This document shows, in pieces, positions 11,141 through 58,240 of a stretch of 64,000 nucleotides of DNA. Source of the DNA: Candidatus Nanohaloarchaea archaeon (GTDB lineage: Archaea; Nanohalarchaeota; Nanosalinia; Nanosalinales; Nanosalinaceae); contig JACOQA010000002.1 of NCBI GenBank assembly GCA_014297435.1, positions 64,001 to 128,000 on the forward strand, given 5' to 3'. Numbering within the stretch: position 1 is the stretch's first letter; each line of letters begins with the position of its first letter. The translations under genes and the position numbers were made by a program. Under the pieces are notes generated by a model. The model saw only the letters and a list, made by a program, of their open reading frames with translations. It had not been told where the DNA came from and ran no database searches.

Positions 11141-11173
11141 ATGAAGGGTGGACGTTTTTCCAACAAAAGGTAG
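11141..11173 (+). CDS. Candidate micro-ORF MKGGRFSNKR (GG-leader family copy C)
   Basis: ATG AAG GGT GGA CGT TTT; shares AAGGGTGGACGTTTT with copy A; degenerate TATA TTCTAAAA ends 24 nt upstream. Confidence 0.4.
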   Translation: MKGGRFSNKR

Positions 11174-12821: not shown

Positions 12822-13112
12822 CTAGTTTCCATCGCCGAACTCCCCCAGAGGGATCTCTGATGAGCCAAGATAATCAAAGGAATGTTCGTAATTCAGACCT
12901 CCATCAGCGACAGTTTCCTGATTTTCCTCTTCAAGCATCTCTGACTGGAAACCGTCCATCCCAAGCTGCTCGATATAATCCGGATCTTCGATTCCATAAG
13001 CTTCATCGCCCTCAACCATCAAATCGTCCTCTTTACTGGATTCGATATAGCCTTCAGGGTCTTGAACGATTGGAACTTCCGGATCTCTTCCTATCCTAGG
13101 ACAGTAATCCAT
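12822..13112 (-). CDS. Hypothetical acidic protein with a TVADGG motif, downstream of leader A
   Basis: 96 aa; its ATG overlaps the stop of the His/Thr micro-ORF (TAATG). Confidence 0.7.
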   Translation of the reverse strand: MDYCPRIGRDPEVPIVQDPEGYIESSKEDDLMVEGDEAYGIEDPDYIEQLGMDGFQSEMLEEENQETVADGGLNYEHSFDYLGSSEIPLGEFGDGN

Positions 13113-13186
13113 TATAAACCCTCTCCAGATGTTTTTTCAGGTTTTGCGATGCGGCACCGTATTGTTGTGTGGTTGTGTGTTGTCAT
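13112..13186 (-). CDS. Candidate His/Thr-rich micro-ORF MTTHNHTTIRCRIAKPEKTSGEGL
   Basis: Translated by hand; stop overlaps the next start; similar to 22884-22964. Confidence 0.55.
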   Translation of the reverse strand: MTTHNHTTIRCRIAKPEKTSGEGL

Positions 13187-13298
13187 ATCGAGTAGAACCT
13201 CGAAAAGAGAATTATTGGTTTAATGCAGCACTGCCACATTCACTGCGGCAGCGGAGAACATTTTAATTGAATGTTTAATTGAGGAGATCTGAGAAAAC

Positions 13299-13355
13299 TT
13301 AGAGCAGAAGCTTCCGGGACTCAAGCACAAAACGTCCACCCTTGATTCCGCTCAT
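13299..13355 (-). CDS. Candidate leaderless micro-ORF MSGIKGGRFVLESRKLLL (GG-leader copy A)
   Basis: TATATAA (13380-13386) ends 24 nt before the ATG; in-frame AAG GGT GGA CGT. Confidence 0.55.
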   Translation of the reverse strand: MSGIKGGRFVLESRKLLL

Positions 13356-13400
13356 ATCCTAACAAAGTTCAGAAGACAGTTATATAGTTTAGGACGGTTT

Positions 13401-14606
13401 CTACCAGACCATCAGTGAGTGCTCATCCCTTACAAGATCCTCATCCCATTTTTCAGGAACATTTTCAGGAACAAGTTTCCTGAGCTCCTCTTGATTCACT
13501 TCACCCAGAAGTCTTTTTCGCTCCTCTTTCATCTGTCCGGGTCTGTTTCTTATTGCGTCACGATCAGGCTCACCGTCAAAGCTTCCTCTAACGGCGTTAC
13601 CCAGTATGTGCGCCATGTCGTTGACGTCCTCGCCATTGATCCTCATGTCGTTATCGGAGTAAAGGATGAACTCGAGATCCGGATTAAATACGTATCTCCC
13701 GTCCCCGTCTGCCTCAACTAGGTATTCAGGAGCGCTCCTATCAATATGACCGAGCAAGCCAAGTCCATTGAGGGTTGCGGCGTGGCGACCCCACATCTCC
13801 GCGTCGTTCTTAGAGATACCCATACTATCAACAGGCTCTGACCATGAGTGAAGTATTCCAACATCAAGGTTCGATTTTTCATAACCTCTGTTTCTCGTTT
13901 TCGGTTCTTTGCTGTCTACCCATAATTGTTCAGGTCTTGTGAGACGTGTGAGTCCAGGATGTATTTGTCCTAATTCATCGTGTACGCCTTCGTCTCTATC
14001 GAGTGCTGTTCTCAGTCCTACTTCCTGTATCCAGCCTTGTTCTCCGTTTTCTATTTGACCGTTAGTGACGTCGTAGTTTCCTTCACCGAATACCTGTTGA
14101 AGGTTGGAAAGATCGCCGGCGTCTAGAGAGCTTCGGGTTATAAGGTCAGTATCATATGATCGGGCGACGCGTATTCCTATGTACTCATTGTCATCCGAAA
14201 CTGCGTATGCTGCACTTGGAGGCTGCTTTATTCCTTCAGGATCGAAATCTTCTCTAAAGAATATTTCAAACTCTTCATCCGGACCTTCTTCTGGCTCCAC
14301 CGCCAGTTTGACATCTAGCTCGTCTCTTTTTTCGTTGTATTCCTCCCAGAGCTGTTTCTGGTCTGGTTTCATCCGGGTACCTGTATTAGTGTTTCGCCCC
14401 ATGCTTCCTGAAGCCATGTATGAATTGCCCGAACGACCGCCATCGGATAGATCCTCTACAAGTTCATAAACAGGCTCGTGGACTATATCGAACATGTCTA
14501 GGACTGACTGCGGTTCGTCATCCACGTACACTTGGATGTCCTCAATGCGGCTTATATCGTAAGAATTCACTTCCCCCTCCCCGTCATAGCTACTGGCGAG
14601 TGACAC
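13401..14606 (-). CDS. Orphan protein with an N-terminal Pol-beta-like nucleotidyltransferase motif and a C-terminal kinase-like motif
   Basis: SGSMGRNT...ELDV...DTDL, and WGRHAATL..LGLLGHID...NPDLE; ORF is solid, function is inferred. Confidence 0.5.
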   Translation of the reverse strand: MSLASSYDGEGEVNSYDISRIEDIQVYVDDEPQSVLDMFDIVHEPVYELVEDLSDGGRSGNSYMASGSMGRNTNTGTRMKPDQKQLWEEYNEKRDELDVKLAVEPEEGPDEEFEIFFREDFDPEGIKQPPSAAYAVSDDNEYIGIRVARSYDTDLITRSSLDAGDLSNLQQVFGEGNYDVTNGQIENGEQGWIQEVGLRTALDRDEGVHDELGQIHPGLTRLTRPEQLWVDSKEPKTRNRGYEKSNLDVGILHSWSEPVDSMGISKNDAEMWGRHAATLNGLGLLGHIDRSAPEYLVEADGDGRYVFNPDLEFILYSDNDMRINGEDVNDMAHILGNAVRGSFDGEPDRDAIRNRPGQMKEERKRLLGEVNQEELRKLVPENVPEKWDEDLVRDEHSLMVW

Positions 14607-14665
14607 TTATATCACTTCCGGCATCTTCAGTATGGATTTCCAAAGACCTGATAGAAGACTGCGAG

Positions 14666-14710
14666 TTAACCTTGCAGAAAGCATCCACCTTTTATTGTGG
14701 TGTAGCGCAT
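14666..14710 (-). CDS. Candidate leaderless micro-ORF MRYTTIKGGCFLQG (GG-leader copy D)
   Basis: TTTTATAAA (14735-14743) ends 24 nt before the ATG; in-frame AAA GGT GGA. Confidence 0.5.
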   Translation of the reverse strand: MRYTTIKGGCFLQG

Positions 14711-14808
14711 ACTTTATAGCGTTCAAACTCAGAATTTATAAAAGGACGTGGAGTCAGCGCCTCTAAAACCAGTATGGATTTAAGTGAGTTCATGTCTCAT
14801 GGAAGGGT

Positions 14809-16857
14809 ATGGAAACAACGGTCATGGTCGGGGAGAAGCCCAAAGTCGCCTCCCGGATCGCCAACGCCCTCGGAAACTACGACACCAAGACCAACCGAGG
14901 GGTCAAGAACTACGTAATCAAGACAGATGAGAGAAAGATAATCATAGCACCTGCCGTAGGCCACATATTCAACCTCGACCAGATCGCCGACAACTGGGAC
15001 TACCCTGTATTCGACGTAGAATGGAAGCCAACATTCGAAACTTCCGACTCGGCCGACTACATGAAGAAATACTACAACAACCTGAAAGACCAGCTGGAAA
15101 AGGCTGACACCTACATCAACGCGTGCGACTTCGACCTTGAAGGCTCTGTTATCGGATACAACGTTATCAAACACTTGACTGGTGCCGATGAAGAAAGAAT
15201 CGAACGCATGAAGTTCTCGACACTGACTCCTTCCGACCTACAGGAAGCATTTGATAACCTGGAGGATTTTGACGCCGGAATGACAGAAGCCGGAATAACA
15301 AGACACATTCTCGACTACTACTACGGTATCAACGTTTCCCGTGCACTGATGAAAGCGGTTAGAGATAACGACCGTTACAAGACTCTTTCTACAGGACGTG
15401 TGCAGGGTCCGACACTTAAGATCTTGGCGGACAGAGAAAAAGAAATACAGGAGTTTGAACCGGATCCTTACTGGGAGCTTTACCTAAAACATGCGGAGTT
15501 TGACGCTCAGTGGGAGGAAGACGAGGACAGGATCTGGGACCAAGAAACAGCGAACGACAAGTTCAACAAGGTATACGGAGAAACCGAAGCAGAAGTCACA
15601 AACGTGAAGGTAAACAACTATACGCACAAGCCACCGATACCTTTCAACCTGACAGGACTACAGAGCGAGGCCTCATCACAGTTCCGTATAAGCCCAAAGA
15701 AGACGCAGTCGATCGCGCAAACACTTTACGAAAACGGGCTTATCTCTTATCCTAGAACCGAGTCACAGAAACTGCCGCCGAAGATCGGATACAAGAACAT
15801 ACTGAACAAGCTGAAGGGTCAGGAAAGCTACGATAATCTGGCGAAAAAAGTACTGAAAAAAGATAAAAACGACAACCTTTACACGACGCAGGGAAGTAAA
15901 GAAGACGACGCACACCCTGCAATCTATCCAACAGGAGAAAGCCCGGGCGGAAAACTGTCAAAACAGGAGAAAAAAGTCTATGATTTAATTGTAAAACGTT
16001 TCTTCGCCGTATTCGGCAAACCAGCCAAACGTCAATCCCTTACCTTCACTCTCGACGTTAAGGAAGAAGAGTTCAAGGCCAAGTCAAAGGTTACAAAGAA
16101 GAGGAACTGGTACGAGCTCTACGATCCATACGTTAAAGTGGATTCGGCCGATCTCCCGGACATGGAGGAAGGCCAGACACTCCAGGTAGAAGACTTCGAA
16201 CTTGTTGACAAAGAAACGCAGCCACCTAACCGTTACAGCCAGTCAAAGATTGTCAACGAGCTTGAGAAACGAGAACTAGGTACAAAAGCGACACGTGCCG
16301 ACACCGTAGACCGCCTTTACGACAGGAACTACATCGAAGAGGAGCCTATCGAAGTAACGGACCTGGGACTTGCGATCGTAAACACTCTAGAGGACTACTG
16401 TGGCAACATCGTCTCCGAAGAGCTTACACGCGAATTCGAGGAAAAGATGCAGGAAATAAGAGAGCAGAAAAACACGAAAGAAGAAGTTCTGGAAGAGGCA
16501 AGAAACGAGTTAGGAGATATACTCGAAAAGTTCAAGGAGAAACAGAAACAGATTGGTTCAGAGCTTGTCGACACAATCGACTCCGAAAGAGAACGCAGAA
16601 GAAGACTAGGTCCATGCGATATCGAGGATTGTGACGGCACCCTAAAAATAATCAAGGCAAACGGCTCAAAATTCGTAGGATGCTCAAACTACCCTGACTG
16701 CGAAAACACATACCCATTACCGAACAACGGAGATATAAAGTCGACAAACGAGGTCTGCGAGGAATGCGGAACACCTAAGATCTTCGTAAGCAGGAAGAAA
16801 GGAAAAGACTACACGATGTGCCTATTTCCGGATTGTCCTACAAAAGATTCTTGGTAG
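14809..16857 (+). CDS. topA: DNA topoisomerase I (type IA)
   Basis: TOPRIM EKP and DFDLEG, STGRVQGPTL, active-site LISYPRTES, C-terminal Cys4 zinc ribbons. Confidence 0.97.
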   Translation: METTVMVGEKPKVASRIANALGNYDTKTNRGVKNYVIKTDERKIIIAPAVGHIFNLDQIADNWDYPVFDVEWKPTFETSDSADYMKKYYNNLKDQLEKADTYINACDFDLEGSVIGYNVIKHLTGADEERIERMKFSTLTPSDLQEAFDNLEDFDAGMTEAGITRHILDYYYGINVSRALMKAVRDNDRYKTLSTGRVQGPTLKILADREKEIQEFEPDPYWELYLKHAEFDAQWEEDEDRIWDQETANDKFNKVYGETEAEVTNVKVNNYTHKPPIPFNLTGLQSEASSQFRISPKKTQSIAQTLYENGLISYPRTESQKLPPKIGYKNILNKLKGQESYDNLAKKVLKKDKNDNLYTTQGSKEDDAHPAIYPTGESPGGKLSKQEKKVYDLIVKRFFAVFGKPAKRQSLTFTLDVKEEEFKAKSKVTKKRNWYELYDPYVKVDSADLPDMEEGQTLQVEDFELVDKETQPPNRYSQSKIVNELEKRELGTKATRADTVDRLYDRNYIEEEPIEVTDLGLAIVNTLEDYCGNIVSEELTREFEEKMQEIREQKNTKEEVLEEARNELGDILEKFKEKQKQIGSELVDTIDSERERRRRLGPCDIEDCDGTLKIIKANGSKFVGCSNYPDCENTYPLPNNGDIKSTNEVCEECGTPKIFVSRKKGKDYTMCLFPDCPTKDSW

Positions 16858-16861
16858 CGGC

Positions 16862-18347
16862 TTAAATAATCTTGTAACGCTCCTCTAGATTCCTAATCTC
16901 CTCTTTGCTATGCTTGGAAAACTTTGGTTCGTATCTGTAGAAAGTTGAGAAAAAACGGACTAAGGTCCAGTTCTTGGAGCAATATCTGTCTTCATTCCGC
17001 CCGATTTCGGTTTTAAAAACATTTTCAATCTCTGAGGCTACGCTCTCATTCTTCTTTCTTATTCTAAGTTCGTTTCCTGTACACAGTATATTTGAGGCGA
17101 TACCATCTAATCTTGAGTTAGGTTTTAATGGCAATCTAATTTCAGAATTTTCGTTACCTCTAACCCCTACTTTGTATCTGAGTTGGTTTTCTCCCATTAG
17201 CCGATGTGTTTCCGCCTTTCCGAAAAGTTCAACAATTTTCGAAACCGGTGCTGCATACTTATCTTCCTCCCAAGTGTAGACCTGATGTCTGGATATCTCT
17301 AAGTTTGAGGCTATCTGACGCTGATAAAGCCCTCTTTCTTCTCTCAAGCCCTGATATTATCGCCTAAACCTTCACCCTAAGATCCTCTACCTGATGAGGT
17401 CAAAGAAGTCTTTGAAGAAGTTTGACTTCTTTCTACCTCGATAAACGTAAGTTCGGGAACCTTTTTCCAGCTTCCTTATCATTTCTTTTTTCTTACGCGG
17501 ATGAGAGAACCCCCACATTATTACAGAAATTTCCGAAGTCCCTAGGACTGAACCTCAGAAGATAGGACCCAGGTTTCCGGATCTCACCTTCGATATTGAT
17601 TCCTTGCATATCGTTCTGACATGTTTCAAGAAAAGACCTAGTAGCTGAAGAGAGCGAAACTCTATAACTCTCCTGAGGCATACACCCATCCGTGTCAAAT
17701 ACTCCTCTCCAGTAGGCGTTAGATAGGTCTCCAGAGTCAAAAATTTCTGGGCGAGATAGTTCTCCTTTCTTGTAGGATTTAGGTAGGTTGAAACAGTGTC
17801 GGATGTATCGGCAGAACCATTTGTTAGCTATTTTAAGTTCGATTTTATTGCCTCTCTCGAGTATGCAGCATGTGCTTTCTGGTAAACCGAAGAGTTTCTG
17901 AACTAGTTCCTAGAGTTTCTCGATAAATTTTCTTGAGTCTTCGAGTTCTTCCGGCTTTCCTCCATCTACTACGCTCCATATGTTAGGTCCGTTGAATCCG
18001 CCATCTCCTGCTGCTACGCCTGCAAAGTATGCAAATTTCTCGGTTTTGAGATCCGAGTTTTTTCTTGGCGGATCGAGTTTTGAGGAGTTTCGTGAGCTGG
18101 TTATGTATTCTATTTCTTGGGACATCGTTTTTTCGTTGATGAGTTCTGAGAGGATGTCCATAGACCATGTCTGTTTTTCTTTACATCTTTGCATGGTCTG
18201 AGAAGTAATATTATGTTCTTCTGGATCTAAAATGTTGTATATTTCCTTGTTTCTTTCTTTGCCTATCTTAGCGTAGGGTATAGACTTTCGGCTTTCTTCT
18301 TTGCCGTTAATAAGGGCTTTAGACAAGTTGATGATTTCCTCTGGCAT
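16862..18347 (-). pseudogene. Disrupted two-motif LAGLIDADG endonuclease-like gene with a downstream HTH segment
   Basis: FAYFAGVAAGDGG, in-frame TAG at 17910-17912, then YWRGVFDTDG in the same frame, frameshifts near 17510 and 17370, then HTH-like GLYQRQIASNLEISRHQVYTWE. Confidence 0.7.
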
Positions 18348-18434
18348 GTAGATTTATTACTGGGCTTCTTTTGAAAAGTGGAGCGGACGGAGTTCCGTTA
18401 GTTCCGGTAGAAAAAGAACAAAAACAGTTATTTA

Positions 18435-18731
18435 TCATTTAGATGACTGTTCGCCATCGTGAAGTTTTTCTCTTTCTAGGTCGATTGCGGTATCGATCAA
18501 GAGACGTCCTAGCTGCCTTCCTCTTTCCCGGGACATGCCTTTTTCTTCGAACCTGTCCGCGAACTGCTCCATGACCTGTTCCTCCCGATTCTCATCCTTT
18601 ATCTCTATATCGTTTTTCTCTTTATACTCGATGACTTTGAGGACTTCTTCCATCCTGTCATCAATTTTCTCAACTATCTCATCGTTTATACTGTCGATGT
18701 TGCCGCGGGCATCTTCCAGAGGATTCGCCAT
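18435..18731 (-). CDS. Chorismate mutase (AroQ type)
   Basis: LEDARGNIDSINDEIV...R...IEYK...DENREEQV; last gene of the Phe/Tyr operon. Confidence 0.88.
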   Translation of the reverse strand: MANPLEDARGNIDSINDEIVEKIDDRMEEVLKVIEYKEKNDIEIKDENREEQVMEQFADRFEEKGMSRERGRQLGRLLIDTAIDLEREKLHDGEQSSK

Positions 18732-18757
18732 AATAGGTTATGATTGAACGGTCTTTT

Positions 18758-19615
18758 TTACTTACGGACTTCATCGCTCAAATGCTCTATTACCAGATCT
18801 GTTCTTTCCTGCGCATCTTCAAGATCGAACTCTTCGCCCAACTCCTCAAACTTTTCTGCGAAAGCCTCTTCATCCCCTATTATTTCCTGTATCTCCTCAG
18901 CGGACTCCTTGAATCGTTCACGTACTTTTTCGTTCTCAGGGTTTTCGGCCTGTATAGAGCCGTAAAGTCCGGACTTCTGATTCAGCATTCTTGCTGTAAG
19001 ATCGGTAATTAACTGGTAGACCGGAGAAGAATATTCTGACATCTCCGAACCCGACATATCTGACTTCCTGATGGTTTCGGAAACCACGAGCTCTGAGAAA
19101 TGCATCAATCCCTGTACAAGACTCATCGCCTTATCATGCGACTCAGCATCTGTGACATGTATATGTGCGTCTTTCCGGTTCCAGAACTCTTCCATAGCCG
19201 TCCATTTCTTCCCTTCAATCGGAGTTAAGACAATTTTCTGACCTTCAACCGAGTTCGAAGGGGCATACATCGGATGCATCCCCAGAACTTCATCAGAATA
19301 CTGTTTCATAGCCTCTGTCGGCTTCTTCTTAACGCTTGTAATATCGCAGAACAAGGTATCGTCCGAAATATGTGAACCGATCTCTTCAATAACATCAACA
19401 GTTACAGCGATAGGAACTGCCACGATTACGACATCCGCATCTTTTACTATCTCGGTGTTTTCTCCAAAATCCCATCCATGTTTATTTGCCACTTCTTCGG
19501 CCTCTTCAAGACTTTCACCGGAGATAGTTATCTCGTTGTGTTCTTCGAGAAGTTTTCCTAGGTGTTGGCCGAACTGACCGGTTCCGCCGACAATAACGAT
19601 TTTTTCGTCTATCAT
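18758..19615 (-). CDS. tyrA: Prephenate dehydrogenase
   Basis: Rossmann IVGGTGQFG, DITSVK, GMHPMYAP, HDKAMSLVQGLMH. Confidence 0.92.
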   Translation of the reverse strand: MIDEKIVIVGGTGQFGQHLGKLLEEHNEITISGESLEEAEEVANKHGWDFGENTEIVKDADVVIVAVPIAVTVDVIEEIGSHISDDTLFCDITSVKKKPTEAMKQYSDEVLGMHPMYAPSNSVEGQKIVLTPIEGKKWTAMEEFWNRKDAHIHVTDAESHDKAMSLVQGLMHFSELVVSETIRKSDMSGSEMSEYSSPVYQLITDLTARMLNQKSGLYGSIQAENPENEKVRERFKESAEEIQEIIGDEEAFAEKFEELGEEFDLEDAQERTDLVIEHLSDEVRK

Positions 19616-20724
19616 AGTTCCTCCTCCAGGATGTCGAACGCTTTGTTGATTTCTTCTTTAGTTGTTGAGCCGAAACATATTCTGACATTTTGATCGCTTT
19701 CCGGACCCATAGGTTCGCCAGGAACCATCGCAACACCTTCCTCGATCATATCAAGACAGAAATCCCAGGAATCCTCTTTAACCTCGGGAAATGCATAGAT
19801 CGCTCCTTCAGGCATCTGAAAATCCCATCCTAGCTCGTTCATTCTTTCGACAAGCAGGTCTCTTCTTTCCTCGTAAACCTGCCTCATCTCTTCAACGTGT
19901 GAATCATTTTCCAGTGCTTCAAGCGCTGCAATCTGCGAGGGTTTTGGCGGACAGGCAGTTGCTCCTCTCGCGACTTTCGCAAAGTTCTCTATATCATCTT
20001 CTCTTCCTACCACCCAGCCTATTCTCCAGCCAGTCATCGCATGATTCTTCGAAACTGAACCGATCACTACAGAGTTTTCACAGTATGCTGCAGGCGAATA
20101 ATGAGTCTTTCCATAATTCAGGCGATGGTATACCTCATCGGAAAGAAGCATGACGTCATTTTCTTCACAGAACTTTCCGATGTTCTTCGCTTGTTTTTCT
20201 GTTAGCATTCTTCCTGTCGGGTTTGAAGGCGTGTTAACCACGACAAGCTCTGCATCTTTCATTTCCTGCTTTGCTTCGTCTCTAAGTTCTTCGCCATCAA
20301 AGTACTCTACTTGTGTCCACTGATTGCCGTTAACCTCACTCATCAATTTGTACGGACCCCAGCAAGGATCGTTAAATACAGCTTCTTTGTTCGAGTCAAG
20401 CATTGCCGCAAAAACAGAGTAAATCGCTCCCATTCCGCCTGTAGCAACCATAACGTTTTCTTTAGAAAGCTCGGCGTTTTTCGGACCAGTTTTTTGCTTT
20501 AATCCTTCTTCCTCAACAATGGCTTTTCTCAATTTTTCAATACCTGTTACTGATGTATATCCCTGTTTCTGTTCGACTATTCCGTCTGCTGCAGCCTTTT
20601 TAACATGTTCAGGCGTGTCAAAGCTTGGCTGACCGATATCAAATCGGACACATTTATCTTGTTCTCTTGCTTTTTCCGAAATCTTTCTGATCGAAAGCTC
20701 TATGTTTTCAATTCTTTCACGCAT
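19612..20724 (-). CDS. Class I/II PLP-dependent (aromatic/aspartate) aminotransferase
   Basis: GQPSFDTP, NTPSNPTG, SDEVY, SVSKNHAMTGWRIG. Confidence 0.92.
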   Translation of the reverse strand: MRERIENIELSIRKISEKAREQDKCVRFDIGQPSFDTPEHVKKAAADGIVEQKQGYTSVTGIEKLRKAIVEEEGLKQKTGPKNAELSKENVMVATGGMGAIYSVFAAMLDSNKEAVFNDPCWGPYKLMSEVNGNQWTQVEYFDGEELRDEAKQEMKDAELVVVNTPSNPTGRMLTEKQAKNIGKFCEENDVMLLSDEVYHRLNYGKTHYSPAAYCENSVVIGSVSKNHAMTGWRIGWVVGREDDIENFAKVARGATACPPKPSQIAALEALENDSHVEEMRQVYEERRDLLVERMNELGWDFQMPEGAIYAFPEVKEDSWDFCLDMIEEGVAMVPGEPMGPESDQNVRICFGSTTKEEINKAFDILEEEL

Positions 20725-21493
20725 CTTTACCACCGAATGATCCAAGGACTTTAACCTCGGCGTAAGTTTCCAGACATTTTTTCGTGTTCTCGAATTTCTC
20801 AGAGTTCTGGTCGGCCTCCGCCTCTATGTAGAAAAAGTAGTTTCCAAGACCATCTTTAGTCGGCCGAGACTGGATGTACGCCAAGTTAATTCCGTGTCCA
20901 GAAAAACATGAAAGCATCGACCCTAGAAGACCCGGACGATCCTCACCCGGCTCCACTATCATCGATGTCTTACTGCCTTCACTTTGTTTACCGTTTAAGA
21001 TGAAGAACCTGGTAGTGTTTGACTCACGATCCTGTACGCTTTCCTCCAGAATGTTTAGATCGTTTAGTTGTGCTGCAAGCTTGGAGCAGATCGCGGCTTC
21101 ACCTTCTTCTATTTCCTCAGCGGCTTTGGCAGTGCTTGAAGACTCTTTTTTCTCCCAGCCATTTTCTCCAATTATCTTTTTTGACTGTGTCAGTGCTTGT
21201 GGATGAGACCGAACTTTCTCGACATCGTTAATGTTTCCTTCTTTTGAGGCTAGTACGTGATCGATCTCGACCTTTACCTGTCCTGTAACCTCAACATCTC
21301 TTTCTCTCAACAAGTCGATCGATTCTGTTACTCCACCTCCAAGAGAGTTTTCGAACGGTATTACTGCTGCCTTGGCATCTGATTCAACCGCCTCTGTTAT
21401 AGTGGAGACCGGAACCGGTTCATAGTTGGAGAAGTATTTTTCTGCAGCTTGATGGGTGTATGTGCCTTCAGGTCCTAGGAACGCTACTTTCAT
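20717..21493 (-). CDS. pheA: Prephenate dehydratase with ACT domain
   Basis: VAFLGPEGTYT, PFENSLGG, SHPQAL, NTTRF, IQSRP. Confidence 0.94.
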   Translation of the reverse strand: MKVAFLGPEGTYTHQAAEKYFSNYEPVPVSTITEAVESDAKAAVIPFENSLGGGVTESIDLLRERDVEVTGQVKVEIDHVLASKEGNINDVEKVRSHPQALTQSKKIIGENGWEKKESSSTAKAAEEIEEGEAAICSKLAAQLNDLNILEESVQDRESNTTRFFILNGKQSEGSKTSMIVEPGEDRPGLLGSMLSCFSGHGINLAYIQSRPTKDGLGNYFFYIEAEADQNSEKFENTKKCLETYAEVKVLGSFGGKDA

Positions 21494-21759
21494 TACATAT
21501 CCTCTTCCTGTAAATCAACAGCAGTATCTATCAGTAGTTCAGCGAGTTCCCGACCTTTTTCTCGAGGTAGGTCTTCTTTTTCGAAAAGCTTCTCGAACTG
21601 ATCCTTAACAACTTCCTCTCTGCCTTCATCCTTGATTTCCATGCCGTTCTGTTTCTTGTATTCGCCGATCTCCTCGACAACGTTCATCCTGCGGGAAACT
21701 GCGTCAACGATCTCGGTATTAACCCTGTCAATCTCCTTCCGGTAATCCTCAAGATCCAT
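21493..21759 (-). CDS. Chorismate mutase (AroQ type), second copy
   Basis: LEDYRKEIDRVNTEIV...RR...IGEYK...DEGREEVV; similar to 18435-18731. Confidence 0.88.
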   Translation of the reverse strand: MDLEDYRKEIDRVNTEIVDAVSRRMNVVEEIGEYKKQNGMEIKDEGREEVVKDQFEKLFEKEDLPREKGRELAELLIDTAVDLQEEDM

Positions 21760-21800
21760 GTCTTTGATTCACCTTCGAAGCGTTTTATAAATGGCGGAGG

Positions 21801-22382
21801 TTATGGGGTGTTGAAATGCCCCATGTAGGGAGTATCCTCCGTATCAACATCTTCCATCTCTCTGTGACGAGTTCCATCATAAGTCGGAAAACCGCCATCA
21901 GTAACGACTGCTTTCTCCGATTCTTCAGTAACTTGGATCTCCCACGACGATTTCTCGCCATATTCTTTCCCCAGTTCCTGTCGGGTTTCGAACACCGTGT
22001 CTCGAACCTCAGAACGTTCACCGGCAATAACTACCTCATCGTCGAACTCGAAAACTTCAACATTCTCAGGTGCAGCTTTTTCGGCTTCATCCTTGCCGCT
22101 TTCAAATGTTCGTTGATACTCGAAACCGTTCTGGAAAACTTTTGGAAATGCTTCACGGAAACCTTCGATTCCTGCACCCTGGTCATAAACTTCTATGGAG
22201 TCGTCATAGTCGACTACTTTTATCCTGCCGTGATCGCTGTTGACATGTATATCTCTTCCGTTGGCGTCCCCTGGATAGTTCCAGGACCGGGCGGTTTCTA
22301 CAATCTCTTCCTCGTAACTTTCAGGCACCTCAACTTCTGTCCCGACATGGGTTGGCGAAAAGTCGAATCTTTTTGCAGCCAT
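21801..22382 (-). CDS. Hypothetical acidic protein with a VVTDGG motif
   Basis: 193 aa; coupled to the upstream ORF by a TAATG overlap. Confidence 0.75.
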   Translation of the reverse strand: MAAKRFDFSPTHVGTEVEVPESYEEEIVETARSWNYPGDANGRDIHVNSDHGRIKVVDYDDSIEVYDQGAGIEGFREAFPKVFQNGFEYQRTFESGKDEAEKAAPENVEVFEFDDEVVIAGERSEVRDTVFETRQELGKEYGEKSSWEIQVTEESEKAVVTDGGFPTYDGTRHREMEDVDTEDTPYMGHFNTP

Positions 22383-22879
22383 TATTCCATCACCGGGAAG
22401 CCGTCGTAGCTGTCAAAGGTGTTCGGTCTGTAGGTTTCTCCGTGGAACCAGCGTTCGATCTGTTTTGCCTGCTGAGGGTTCATATTACTGCCGATAACAT
22501 CATCAAGAAACTCATTTGTCTGATCGTAAACTTCATCAACAGCTGATTCGATCTCCATCATCTCATCCCTGTTAAAGGCGTACTCCTGAGAGATAGCCTC
22601 ACTACTTCCTTCAACGAATCTTTCTCCCGGGACTTCTAATGTGTCGAAGAACTCGCCATATTTTTGAGAGGGTTCTACATCTTCCTCCGGTTCGGCCAAT
22701 TTTTCCCACCAGATCTGACCTGAAGGATCTACATCATACACAGGATCTTCTCCTCCGTCCGTAACGGTTCTGTCGACTCTGCCGTTTACGGTTTCGAGCT
22801 CTCCTTCAGCTGTTTCCTTGAAGGTCATATGTGGAGCCTCTACTCTTTCCTTGATGCTGGAATCGCCTCCAGTATACAT
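22382..22879 (-). CDS. Hypothetical acidic protein with a TVTDGG motif, downstream of leader B
   Basis: 165 aa; ATG lies 4 nt after the His/Thr micro-ORF stop. Confidence 0.75.
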   Translation of the reverse strand: MYTGGDSSIKERVEAPHMTFKETAEGELETVNGRVDRTVTDGGEDPVYDVDPSGQIWWEKLAEPEEDVEPSQKYGEFFDTLEVPGERFVEGSSEAISQEYAFNRDEMMEIESAVDEVYDQTNEFLDDVIGSNMNPQQAKQIERWFHGETYRPNTFDSYDGFPVME

Positions 22880-22883
22880 GCTC

Positions 22884-22964
22884 TCAATACCTCTCTGGTT
22901 TTTCTGAATTAGTTTTGGGTTTTTCTCTCATGCCGTGTGTTGTGTGGTGTGTGTTGTGTGTCAT
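22884..22964 (-). CDS. Candidate His/Thr-rich micro-ORF MTHNTHHTTHGMREKPKTNSEKPERY
   Basis: Translated by hand; 4 His and 4 Thr in codons 2-10; similar to 13112-13186. Confidence 0.55.
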   Translation of the reverse strand: MTHNTHHTTHGMREKPKTNSEKPERY

Positions 22965-23145
22965 GATTGTATCACGAATACGAAATGGCGTTTTCTACGG
23001 TTTTACCGTGAGAAAAGCCTTTTTTGGAATTTACAGCAGAATCAGTAGCAGCAGAAGTAGCAGTAAAATTGAAGATAATACGAAGTCAGTAGAAACCGAA
23101 ATTTTAGTTGAGAAGATCCGTGAGAAAGCTGGGGCTCGACCCGTC

Positions 23146-23187
23146 TTAAAGTTGCAGAACCCGTCCACCCTGAGTTGCGGACATCAT
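23146..23187 (-). CDS. Candidate leaderless micro-ORF MMSATQGGRVLQL (GG-leader copy B)
   Basis: TTTATAAA (23212-23219) ends 24 nt before the ATG; in-frame CAG GGT GGA CGG. Confidence 0.55.
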   Translation of the reverse strand: MMSATQGGRVLQL

Positions 23188-23281
23188 CGTAACTATGAAT
23201 AGACAACAGAATTTATAAACAATTTGCCGCACACACCCAGGCTAAGCCAGCTATTTATTATTTGAACTGGACATACAGTTC

Positions 23282-56968: not shown

Positions 56969-58240
56969 CTAAGATCCTATAGAAGAAATAAACTCTGTGA
57001 CACCGACTCCCTCACGGTAAAGGACGCCAGCTACAACAGCGAGACCGGCAAGGATCGAACCTATTAGACGCGTTTCAGAGCCTGAGAAAGCTCCAAGAGC
57101 TGGCGACCCACCACCCCCAGCGAAACTTGTGGTTTGATCAGAAGTCTCAAAACCGCCACCGGACCCGACACGTCTTAAGGTAGAGGTCTCAGCCTCCATA
57201 CCGCCCTTTCTAGCGACGAACCTAATCCGGTTTAGACCTTCCTCCATGCTTAAAAGCGTGCAGAAACGGTTTTCCGCATCTTCCTCACGCTGCCTTTCAC
57301 CATTCCTGTATATTGTAACTTTTTCGGCGTCACCCGAAATATCAGCGCATGCCCTCACCGTTCCGGGTTCAGATATAGGAGGCATATCTATATCACTTAT
57401 TTCAAGACCAGAGACTACATCGAGCTCTAAGGTTCGTGATTCAGAACCTGCCGAAACCTGGAAATCGATTTTACCTGGTTCAGAGGGAGTAAAACCTGTC
57501 CTGAAATCTGTGTTAGGTTCAACCGTTTGTTCAAAGATTCTCTGGTCCCCAGCAAAAACATTTACAGTCTGAGAAGATGGGAATTCATGGTTTCCGCTGA
57601 CATAGACCGTTTCACCTAAAGAAACTTGTTCCTGGGAAAGCTTTACATCCAAGTTCTGCCCTTGCACAACTACTTCAGGCCAGTCTATCGATGAAACTCC
57701 GTCACCTGAACCCCCACCGTTCGTATTATCTGAAGAGTCTTGATCATCTTGATCCGAAGAGTCAGAGTCTTCATCATTATCCGAGTTTTCATTAGAGTCG
57801 TCCTGAGAATCTCCGTCATCAAACCTGGATCCATCCTCATTAGAATCATCGGTTGAATCACCGCTATCAAACCTGGAACCATCTTCACCTGCATCATCTG
57901 TAGAGTCTCCACTATCGAATCTGGAGCCGTCCTCGTTTGAGTCATCAGTTGAATCTCCGCTATCAAATCGAGAGTCGTCACTACTCTCGTCAGAGGTGTC
58001 GGTCGAATCTTGTCGATCTCCCGTATTGTAATCGTCTTGAGAGTCACCGCTATCAAACCTAGAACCAGGACTTTCCGTGTCATCGTTCGAATCTCCGCTG
58101 TCGAATCTATCACTGGATCCTTCCGAGTAATCGTTGAAGTCGTCCTGAGAGTCACCGCTCGCGAACCGCTGACCAGCCACAAGAGATGCTGAAGAGGCAA
58201 GAAGAATTAGGATACCGAGGGCTAGAGCTGTCTTCTTCAT
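56969..58240 (-). CDS. Secreted, C-terminally anchored surface protein with RFDSGDSxDD repeats and Ig-like domains
   Basis: Sec signal peptide, 7 repeats, beta-rich domains with a Cys pair, C-terminal hydrophobic helix. Confidence 0.8.
   Translation of the reverse strand: MKKTALALGILILLASSASLVAGQRFASGDSQDDFNDYSEGSSDRFDSGDSNDDTESPGSRFDSGDSQDDYNTGDRQDSTDTSDESSDDSRFDSGDSTDDSNEDGSRFDSGDSTDDAGEDGSRFDSGDSTDDSNEDGSRFDDGDSQDDSNENSDNDEDSDSSDQDDQDSSDNTNGGGSGDGVSSIDWPEVVVQGQNLDVKLSQEQVSLGETVYVSGNHEFPSSQTVNVFAGDQRIFEQTVEPNTDFRTGFTPSEPGKIDFQVSAGSESRTLELDVVSGLEISDIDMPPISEPGTVRACADISGDAEKVTIYRNGERQREEDAENRFCTLLSMEEGLNRIRFVARKGGMEAETSTLRRVGSGGGFETSDQTTSFAGGGGSPALGAFSGSETRLIGSILAGLAVVAGVLYREGVGVTEFISSIGS
57790..58170 (-). 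repeat. Coding tandem repeat: 7 x RF(D/A)(S/D)GDSxDD, the last four at 48-nt period
   Basis: Visible in protein and DNA, with synonymous variation between copies. Confidence 0.9.

Follow-up and report, generated by a model that had tools for sequence, protein, structure and literature searches.

The present analysis concerns a 64,000-nucleotide (nt) stretch of DNA from Candidatus Nanohaloarchaea archaeon (contig JACOQA010000002.1, positions 64,001 to 128,000; hereafter the window) and, within it, two micro open reading frames (micro-ORFs), A and B, which begin with codons made almost only of A and C and end at the start of a gene for an acidic protein. The best-supported reading, which we hold to be probable by a modest degree, is that the A/C-rich upstream ORF (uORF) is a translated leader cistron, translationally coupled to the gene behind it, with an unstructured A/C start and an incidental peptide. 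This reading draws on four things established from the sequences: the anatomy of the element, its conservation, the lack of amino-acid selection, and the predicted accessibility of the A/C tract. The elements that it involves are the following.

13112-13186, minus strand: A/C-rich upstream ORF A, 24 codons and a stop, with an A/C-only tract at 13162-13183 (22 nt).
22884-22964, minus strand: A/C-rich upstream ORF B, 26 codons and a stop, with an A/C-only tract at 22935-22961 (27 nt).
13197-13201, minus strand: Shine-Dalgarno (SD)-like GAGGT of micro-ORF A, complementary to the 16S rRNA 3' end GGAUCACCUCCA of two relatives.
22971-22976, minus strand: weak SD-like CGTGAT of micro-ORF B.
12822-13112, minus strand: main gene A, a 96-residue acidic protein (29% Asp + Glu) with an ADGG motif and no Pfam or NCBIfam family.
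22382-22879, minus strand: main gene B, a 165-residue acidic protein with a TDGG motif, probably disordered, with no Pfam or NCBIfam family.

Both micro-ORFs lie on the minus strand where the initial annotation had placed them, and their translations equal the peptides that it gave. The runs of Thr, His, and Asn codons that it described are the A/C-only tracts, which follow the ATG directly. It had also reported that each frame ends at the next start, and this is seen in the window: the TAA of ORF A shares one base with the ATG of the 96-residue frame, and 4 nt separate the stop of ORF B from the ATG of the 165-residue frame. The Lys/Pro/Glu-rich tail is likewise present, and arises from a conserved A-run followed by the purine-rich SD of the main gene.

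The two A/C tracts are not due to chance. They are the two longest A/C-only runs in the genome, the next being 20 nt, and of the 20 A/C-only runs of at least 16 nt found genome-wide on both strands, tracts A and B each stand directly 3' of an ATG. Nucleotides 4-27 of the two micro-ORFs are A or C at 23/24 and 24/24 positions (counted by hand), while the A+C fraction of the same segment in ORFs of at least 150 residues (n = 786) has a mean of 0.54, a standard deviation of 0.11, and a maximum of 0.92. Leaders A and B share upstream motifs of which the window holds just two occurrences, against an expectation of 0, and the whole genome likewise two.

The genome that carries the window (G000) is archaeal and comprises 998,768 bp in 15 contigs with 44% G+C; the seryl-tRNA synthetase of the window shares 95% identity with the enzyme of a metagenome-assembled genome (MAG) named 'Candidatus Nanohaloarchaea archaeon' and 70% with the one encoded in a Candidatus Nanohalobium sp. 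MAG. It was compared within a set of 70 genomes of the order, composed of the window's family (49 others and G000), three families (f2, f3, and f5) with 12 genomes, and a further family (f4) with 8. A sequence-only covariance model of the SD and the ORF, built from 18 copies (R1), finds matches in 40 of the 70 genomes: 36 of the 49 others of the window's family, none of the 12 in f2, f3, and f5, and 3 of the 8 in f4, where the matches are weak (E-values 5.8e-4 to 8.6e-3), so that the four other families together contribute 3 of 20 genomes. According to the R1 search, a genome holds 1-5 copies of the module, often 0.7-1 kb apart.

Micro-ORFs A and B are evidently homologous parts of one leader module of ~300 nt. 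A genome of the same genus (G001) has both orthologues, with leader identities of 89% (B) and 77% (A) against 71% and 68% for the respective genes, and in pairwise alignments the identity is high from the TATA box or the first ATG to the end of the A/C tract and then drops at once. The A/C-rich element is the final part of this composite leader, which is conserved within a single nanohaloarchaeal family and stands before a variety of genes. Two further copies occur in G000. The third, on contig 9 at 99747-99825 (plus strand), is degenerate and less A/C-pure and overlaps the ATG of an acidic ORF of ~100 residues; the fourth cassette, on contig 1 at 137229-137850 (plus strand), has an A/C-rich start that continues in frame into the main ORF.

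The strict pattern ATGACR followed by 14 A/C letters gives 18 matches in 17 of the 70 genomes, and the reversed pattern gives 8. The pattern SD plus ATGACA plus 12 A/C letters, searched in one genome per species over 185,579 species, gives 7 stretches, 2 from genomes named Nanohaloarchaea or Nanohalobium, 1 from an 'uncultured archaeon', and 4 from unrelated bacteria. A search of sequencing runs for this sequence found no RNA run that holds it and a single DNA run with 0.07 of its words. Phase variation by slippage was considered and set aside, the repeats being imperfect and the length being fixed at ~14 codons across genera.

For the statistics on individual copies, we screened the loci of the R1 search together with those found earlier, leaving aside 80 seryl-tRNA-synthetase loci, for an ATG whose next 24 nt include 20 or more A/C. 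The 45 candidates comprise 34 separate uORFs (23-38 codons), 2 in-frame fusions, and 9 that were removed, either as long ordinary ORFs or matches lacking the leader (two each at L018, L042, and L054, one each at L029 and L057) or because of their position at a locus edge (L167). The start of the main gene was defined independently of the uORF as the first ATG in the longest downstream frame. SD matches were scored against GGAGGTGATC, which is complementary to the 3' end of the 16S rRNA of the two relatives; G000 itself has no assembled 16S.

The start signals of the uORF are well kept. None of the 38 model hits (30 loci) lacks its ATG, and an SD match of at least 5 nt at -22 to -3 (9-18 nt upstream) is found in 33 of the 34 uORFs. 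The same SD criterion is satisfied by 20 of the 34 main ORFs, 23% of 783 long G000 ORFs, and 8% of an internal control. Thr is residue 2 in 27 of the 34 copies. The initial annotation had named orthologous tracts that lack the ATG or carry frame-breaking indels as evidence against a translated peptide; with the ATG retained throughout and the frame open to the main start, translation is not refuted.

Further support for this ATG comes from copies in which no stop follows the A/C-rich start. The genes in question encode threonine ammonia-lyases.

L155:1522-2595 (G021): threonine ammonia-lyase gene with A/C-rich start.
L163:837 onward (G025): threonine ammonia-lyase gene with A/C-rich start.
L143:1-729 (G010): threonine ammonia-lyase gene with A/C-rich start.
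L150:1-501 (G072): threonine ammonia-lyase gene with A/C-rich start.

In G021 and G025 the enzyme (PF00291, 5e-85; TIGR01127, 379.4 bits against a cut-off of 378.75) opens in frame at the ATG of the A/C-rich ORF, which thereby forms an N-terminal extension of ~18 residues, and a full leader lies upstream in both, these being the two whose upstream sequence was examined. The threonine ammonia-lyase homologues of G010 and G072 adjoin cassettes and have a similar A/C-rich start, again as an extension of ~18 residues. That enzyme genes rely on this ATG as their only plausible start speaks for its being a working one, and the fused copies indicate that the A/C-rich start is a portable initiation region, whether a stop follows it or not.

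These data bear on the possibility that the ORF is incidental and untranslated. What is conserved would then be an element acting as RNA or DNA, for example a processing site, a promoter-proximal signal, or a spacer, with an ATG at its beginning only by coincidence. An A/C tract cannot hold a stop codon, and ~9 open codons are thus obtained for free. However, the non-A/C tail, of ~12 codons, is likewise open up to the main start, the ATG and SD are kept in 38/38 and 33/34 copies, respectively, the enzyme genes start at this very ATG, and the stop follows the main start far more often than in a control frame, as described next. We consider an untranslated element very unlikely.

In the first set of copies, the uORF stop lies -4 to +8 nt from the main ATG in 18 of 18. 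In the larger set it lies -7 to +10 nt away in 28 of 34 copies, compared with 6 of 34 for the +2 control frame. The ATG-to-ATG distance is 64-92 nt, and because these distances fall in all three phases, the uORF stop moves together with the main start. The SD of the main gene lies within the 3' part of the uORF, with a match of at least 5 nt in 20 of the 34 copies and of at least 4 nt in 29. The tail that contains it differs between orthologues, apart from a subset of genera in which it is nearly identical at the nucleotide level.

The A/C tract is the most open part of the leader according to the folding predictions: averaged over 25 leaders, the predicted unpaired probability is 0.6-0.82 in the tract, ~0.4 in the flanks, and 0.33-0.38 at the SD and start of the main gene. 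The predictions for ~10 of the 25 leaders have the main SD paired with a C/U-rich stretch 70-100 nt upstream of the uORF, a weak and model-dependent result. The composition of nt 4-42 is 0.48 A, 0.36 C, 0.08 G, and 0.07 T. We also considered pairing of the tract with 16S rRNA, which is unsupported, the longest G/U-only runs in the 16S of the two relatives being 8-11 nt.

The constraint on the A/C-rich codons appears to act on nucleotides rather than residues. In 22 copies with identical spacing, the entropies at codon positions 1, 2, and 3 of codons 2-14 are 1.29, 1.17, and 1.20 bits; there is no relaxation of the third position, and this flat profile gives no sign of purifying selection on the amino-acid sequence of the uORF. 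The A+C content is 81-87% at each of the three positions in the same copies. Over all 34 copies, codons 2-14 encode 30% Thr, 13% His, 13% Asn, 8% Gln, 6% Lys, and 3% Pro, a mix consistent with an A/C-only alphabet (ACA and ACC for Thr, CAC for His, AAC for Asn, CAA for Gln) with few Pro and Lys. Counted per uORF, there are 0-4 His and 1-6 Thr (on average ~4 of 13), and the longest run of a single residue is at most 2 in 26 of the 34 copies, 3 in 6, and 4 in 2. Even within the genus the number varies, with two His codons in A and one in its G001 orthologue.

Codon 15 is AAA in 21 of the 22 aligned copies and never AAG. Genome-wide, just 54% of Lys codons are AAA, so that this near-invariance points to a nucleotide constraint here as well. 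A rare-codon design was ruled out: in the genome as a whole, no other codon is used more often for Thr than ACA (38%), for His than CAC (55%), or for Asn than AAC (67%). A frame shift of the A-run motif between copies was also rejected, the codon-wise listing showing substitutions in one frame. Anchored on nucleotides, the offsets of the motif are 41 in 13 copies, 42 in 6, 44 in 4, 40 in 3, 49 in 3, 38 in 2, 39 in 2, and 36 in 1, with no motif in 2, and these counts are ambiguous owing to variable A-runs.

The initial annotation had likened the micro-ORFs to the hisL and thrL leaders, which sense charged tRNA. Together with pheL and leuL, these are the leader-peptide transcription attenuators of enterobacteria, and they share with the present element a short ORF upstream of a gene cluster and dominated by a few amino acids; some copies of the present element also stand before amino-acid genes. 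The nanohaloarchaeal ORF differs from them in that it has no conserved run of a single codon and uses common codons, the genes downstream do not make Thr or His, and the only hairpin with a U-tract lies upstream of the ORF. Moreover, because the uORF stop abuts the main start, there can be no terminator or antiterminator downstream of it. Sensing of the hisL/thrL type is therefore disfavored by the variable His content, the short runs, the flat entropy, the preferred codons, and the lack of room for a terminator.

Amino-acid supply could instead be sensed at the level of translation, with ribosomes slowing on Thr, His, or Asn codons and thereby changing the output of the coupled gene; for the threonine ammonia-lyase fusions, this would mean that the enzyme is made only when Thr is plentiful. 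The Thr content of codons 2-14 and the fusions themselves (in G021 and G025, with the similar starts in G010 and G072) agree with such a role, as do gene B, which heads a Phe/Tyr gene cluster, and the cassettes of other genera that stand directly before chorismate mutase in three genomes (G029, G071, and G017), prephenate dehydratase in two (G062 and G022), and an aminotransferase in one (G061). The codons, on the other hand, speak against it: their identity is not kept, their third positions are not relaxed, and ACA, CAC, and AAC are common, with tRNA genes for Thr(UGU) and His(GUG) present. The distance from the uORF to the main start is too short for alternative hairpins, the number of Thr codons in the ammonia-lyase fusions (3-6, counted by hand) is not above the family average, and most of the controlled genes encode acidic proteins of unknown function, while the aromatic pathway is unlinked to Thr or His. 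Among the genes behind the cassettes there are no His genes, and the Thr-linked one is threonine ammonia-lyase. We judge translational sensing to be distinctly unlikely.

A functional micro-protein, for example a metal binder based on His as the initial annotation had suggested, fits the residue data still less. The sequence X-X-His at an N-terminus is an ATCUN-like (amino-terminal copper- and nickel-binding) motif, and several copies would begin in this way after removal of Met, His being residue 4 in 11 of the 34 copies and residue 3 in 6, next to the frequent Thr at residue 2. Nevertheless, His is absent from codons 2-14 in 3 of the 34 copies and occurs there only once in 12, conservation at particular positions is limited to Met-Thr and Lys15, the entropy is flat, and in the fused copies the same stretch is a mere N-terminal extension of an enzyme. 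A role of the peptide as such, including that of a metal-binding His cluster, is in our view extremely improbable.

Conservation at the level of nucleotides rather than residues, including the invariant ACA and AAA, is also what one would expect if the C/A-rich tract were the binding site of a trans-acting regulator, either a G/U-rich small RNA or an RNA-binding protein, with the cassettes as its regulon. In enterobacteria, GcvB targets C/A-rich enhancers, and a multi-copy leader before diverse genes would suit such a regulon. However, the only G/U-only runs of at least 16 nt in the genome are the antisense of the tract and a few low-complexity sites, the window holds no match to an Rfam family, and the exact sequence of the tract varies freely and thus fits poorly with fixed seed pairing. 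This explanation appears to us about as improbable as translational sensing.

We return to the translationally coupled leader cistron. Ribosomes would enter at the strong SD and ATG of the A/C-rich micro-ORF, which would be the main entry point for the gene behind. Its first ~14 codons, composed almost only of A and C, cannot base-pair with themselves, and it is proposed that the start site is therefore open. The ribosomes would then read through the weaker SD of the main gene, unfolding the local structure, stop on or beside the main ATG, and restart there by termination-reinitiation. The Thr/His/Asn/Gln content would simply follow from the A/C constraint, and the peptide would be without function. 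The alternative put forward in the initial annotation, in which an unstructured CA tract loads ribosomes and the peptide is incidental, is the version that fits the data best, with a probability that we place only a little above even.

Several points weigh against this interpretation. In 6 of the 34 copies the uORF and the main gene overlap by 14-34 nt, and in these either the main start is uncertain or the coupling is doubtful. Coupling may not be required at all, because 20 of the 34 main ORFs have an SD match of their own of at least 5 nt. The high predicted accessibility of an A/C tract is nearly automatic, and the folds were predicted with standard parameters rather than for molar salt. 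A lack of structure alone does not account for why codon 2 is nearly always ACA and codon 15 nearly always AAA. The uORF, main-gene, and leader instances are all homologous, so that the counts overstate their independence, and translation, coupling, and the enhancer effect are argued from comparison. Finally, the role of the element may be regulatory rather than purely constitutive, for which the 30% Thr and the cassettes before amino-acid genes leave room.

The proposed mechanism has close parallels in known systems. According to passages of PMC5934652, a paper whose reference list includes Martin-Farmer and Janssen 1999, CA tails and CA repeats by or after the start codon raise initiation in E. 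coli, including that of leaderless mRNA. The nanohaloarchaeal tract resembles these enhancers and standby tails as a G/U-poor stretch, predicted to be single-stranded, that adjoins a start; it differs from them in lying inside a natural, conserved archaeal ORF, whereas they are bacterial and mostly artificial.

With regard to coupling, PMC6728339, PMC10666635, and PMC12548453 state for Haloferax volcanii that overlaps of -4/-1 nt or very short gaps give coupling. The last of these also notes that the coupling declines beyond 30-40 nt in E. coli and Haloferax and that bringing in a ribosome may be all that a short uORF is for. The overlapping or near-abutting co-directional ORFs are common to both cases, although the Haloferax studies concern full-length gene pairs and ours is a dedicated leader ORF of 24-29 codons. 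The synthetic bicistronic design (BCD), as outlined in PMC5995908, has the same layout as the A/C-rich uORF cassette. There, as in leader cistrons, a first SD is followed by a short ORF with a second SD near its end and a stop on or beside the gene start (TAATG, TGATG, ATGA), and the account given there has the peptide irrelevant and initiation independent of the downstream sequence.

Unlike the BCD, the nanohaloarchaeal element is natural (from a DPANN lineage) and family-wide, has a fixed A/C start of 14 codons, stands in a multi-ORF leader, and is sometimes fused to the gene. Ribosome-delivering leader cistrons have been discussed for bacteria and built by synthetic biologists, and the A/C-rich uORF, as a member of this class, is a new archaeal variant of a known device. 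A search of the literature on small ORFs, transcriptomes, and leaderless mRNAs of Nanohaloarchaeota found nothing on this element, and we know of no earlier description of a natural, family-wide, sequence-defined ribosome-delivering leader cistron in archaea. The module suggests how reduced, salt-in, host-dependent archaea might secure initiation where molar salt probably stabilizes RNA structure. It also marks a putative co-regulated set of genes, including fast-evolving acidic proteins, which may matter for the physiology of the symbiont.

Upstream of the A/C-rich ORF, the leader holds a second group of conserved features.

13380-13387, minus strand: TATA-like box of leader A, of putative function; the leader's first ATG follows 32 nt downstream.
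23212-23219, minus strand: TATA box TTTATAAA of leader B.
13299-13355, minus strand: first micro-ORF of leader A (frame a), 18 codons, probably leaderless, with a GGTGGAYG motif (peptide KGGRF).
23146-23187, minus strand: first micro-ORF of leader B (frame a), 13 codons.
13220-13339, minus strand: small ORF of leader A in the +1 frame (frame b), from a GTG in the motif to TAA, 39 codons, with a hydrophobic C-terminus.
23031-23168, minus strand: small ORF of leader B in the +1 frame (frame b), 45 codons, ending in a Leu/Ile run.
13229-13253, minus strand: hairpin predicted where the frame-b ORF of leader A ends, followed by a U/C-rich tract (minimum free energy, MFE, -17.0 kcal/mol; z = -3.3 vs shuffles).
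22987-23019, minus strand: predicted hairpin between the frame-b ORF and micro-ORF B (segment MFE -20.2 kcal/mol; z = -2.9).

The spacing between the TATA box and the first ATG is 30-34 nt in 12 other leaders with a TATA match, and such a short distance suggests a leaderless mRNA. Across the leaders the frame-a ORFs have 12-35 codons and one to three copies of GGTGGAYG, and their peptides are of the type M-S-x-A-x-K-G-G-R-F around this near-invariant motif. The motif itself occurs at several places per genome in many relatives (exact matches of 20 nt), and further copies are found in the window at 11141-11173 (plus strand), ~70 nt before the start of the seryl-tRNA synthetase, and on contig 1 of G000 near 137283.

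In 31 of 35 leaders, 30 of them recognized by pattern and 1 by eye, the GTG of the motif shares its frame with an open stretch of 37-95 codons that has a hydrophobic tail. The peptide of this frame b begins with VDAF, and its tail is rich in Leu, Ile, and Val; in G071 only, the first ATG is directly in frame b. It could be used by dual coding, by internal initiation at GTG, or by a programmed +1 frameshift. A search by eye for the last, a shift from frame a to frame b, gave no consistent slippery site, with CUU-stop in 2 leaders only. In the orthologous pair of leader B, substitutions in frame b number 4, 4, and 4 at codon positions 1, 2, and 3, which in this tiny sample, counted by eye, is no coding signature, and the frame-b ORFs match no Pfam or NCBIfam family. 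The Leu run that ends the frame in the window (23031-23070, minus strand) and in related leaders is written mostly with CTG, which accounts for 16% of Leu codons genome-wide. This suggests a nucleotide constraint, such as a hairpin arm, or deliberately non-preferred codons.

The hairpins predicted at the end of frame b have a mean z of -2.28, with z below -1.5 in 23 of 31 leaders (mononucleotide shuffles). In most leaders the stop of frame b lies in or next to the loop and a U/C tract follows, and the stems differ between genera while the pairing is kept. RNAalifold finds 0 consensus pairs in 17 full leaders, for which the MAFFT alignment is very gappy, so that there is no global fold while local folds are possible. 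The whole window gives 0 Rfam hits at gathering thresholds. A permissive Rfam scan gave one match of a microRNA model on a hairpin in leader B, at 24.7 bits against a cut-off of 60, which was taken as chance, and none in leader A.

The upstream frames with their hairpin resemble a terminator or an attenuator; should the leader contain an attenuator-like part, it would be this one and not the Thr/His ORF. One may then imagine the A/C-rich ORF as the last stage of a three-ORF relay, from the leaderless KGGRF ORF through the overlapping frame b, whose last codons would form the 5' arm of the hairpin, to the SD-led A/C ORF coupled to the main gene, in which the progress of ribosomes would gate transcription or translation; we consider this unlikely. 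Were it true, a regulon of Phe/Tyr genes, threonine ammonia-lyase, and small acidic 'TDGG' proteins would be tied to translational status or amino-acid supply, and a host-dependent DPANN lineage would provide a case of leader-peptide attenuation among Archaea. The overlapping small ORFs of the upstream leader, together with the hairpin, are a candidate for a type of regulatory device that is not known to have been demonstrated in archaea.

We turn lastly to the genes behind the leaders. Gene B is followed, with overlaps or short spacers, by the genes below.

18758-22382, minus strand: genes co-directional after gene B, a putative operon as judged from spacing.
Within 18758-22382, minus strand: gene for a 193-residue protein of unknown function, with a start that overlaps the stop of gene B.
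21493-21759, minus strand: chorismate mutase.
20717-21493, minus strand: prephenate dehydratase.
19612-20745, minus strand: class I aminotransferase.
18758-19615, minus strand: prephenate dehydrogenase.

The main-gene products have 55-409 residues with 18-32% Asp + Glu, are only weakly alike, and belong to no Pfam or NCBIfam family. A motif of the type [V/R][T/A]DGG is present in 18 of the 34 main proteins, followed in some by A-M-P-x-G or D-V-D-H-T-P. The ESM Atlas model of the gene B protein (P0002) has a predicted local distance difference test (pLDDT) score of 0.37, and no usable relative was found for it there. The small acidic proteins look disordered and may form a fast-evolving family with a common binding motif. 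The term 'orphan genes', used in the initial annotation, is thus apt with respect to Pfam and NCBIfam, where they have no match, but the proteins are weakly interrelated, share the DGG motif in about half of the cases, and include gene B at the head of the Phe/Tyr cluster.

Two minor observations were made in passing. An ORF with a LAGLIDADG domain lies directly downstream of one cassette (L056:1-948, G072). The window also contains, at 57792-58176, a tandem array with a period of 48 nt and 4-6 copies that are 63-80% alike, which probably encodes an acidic repeat protein on one strand.

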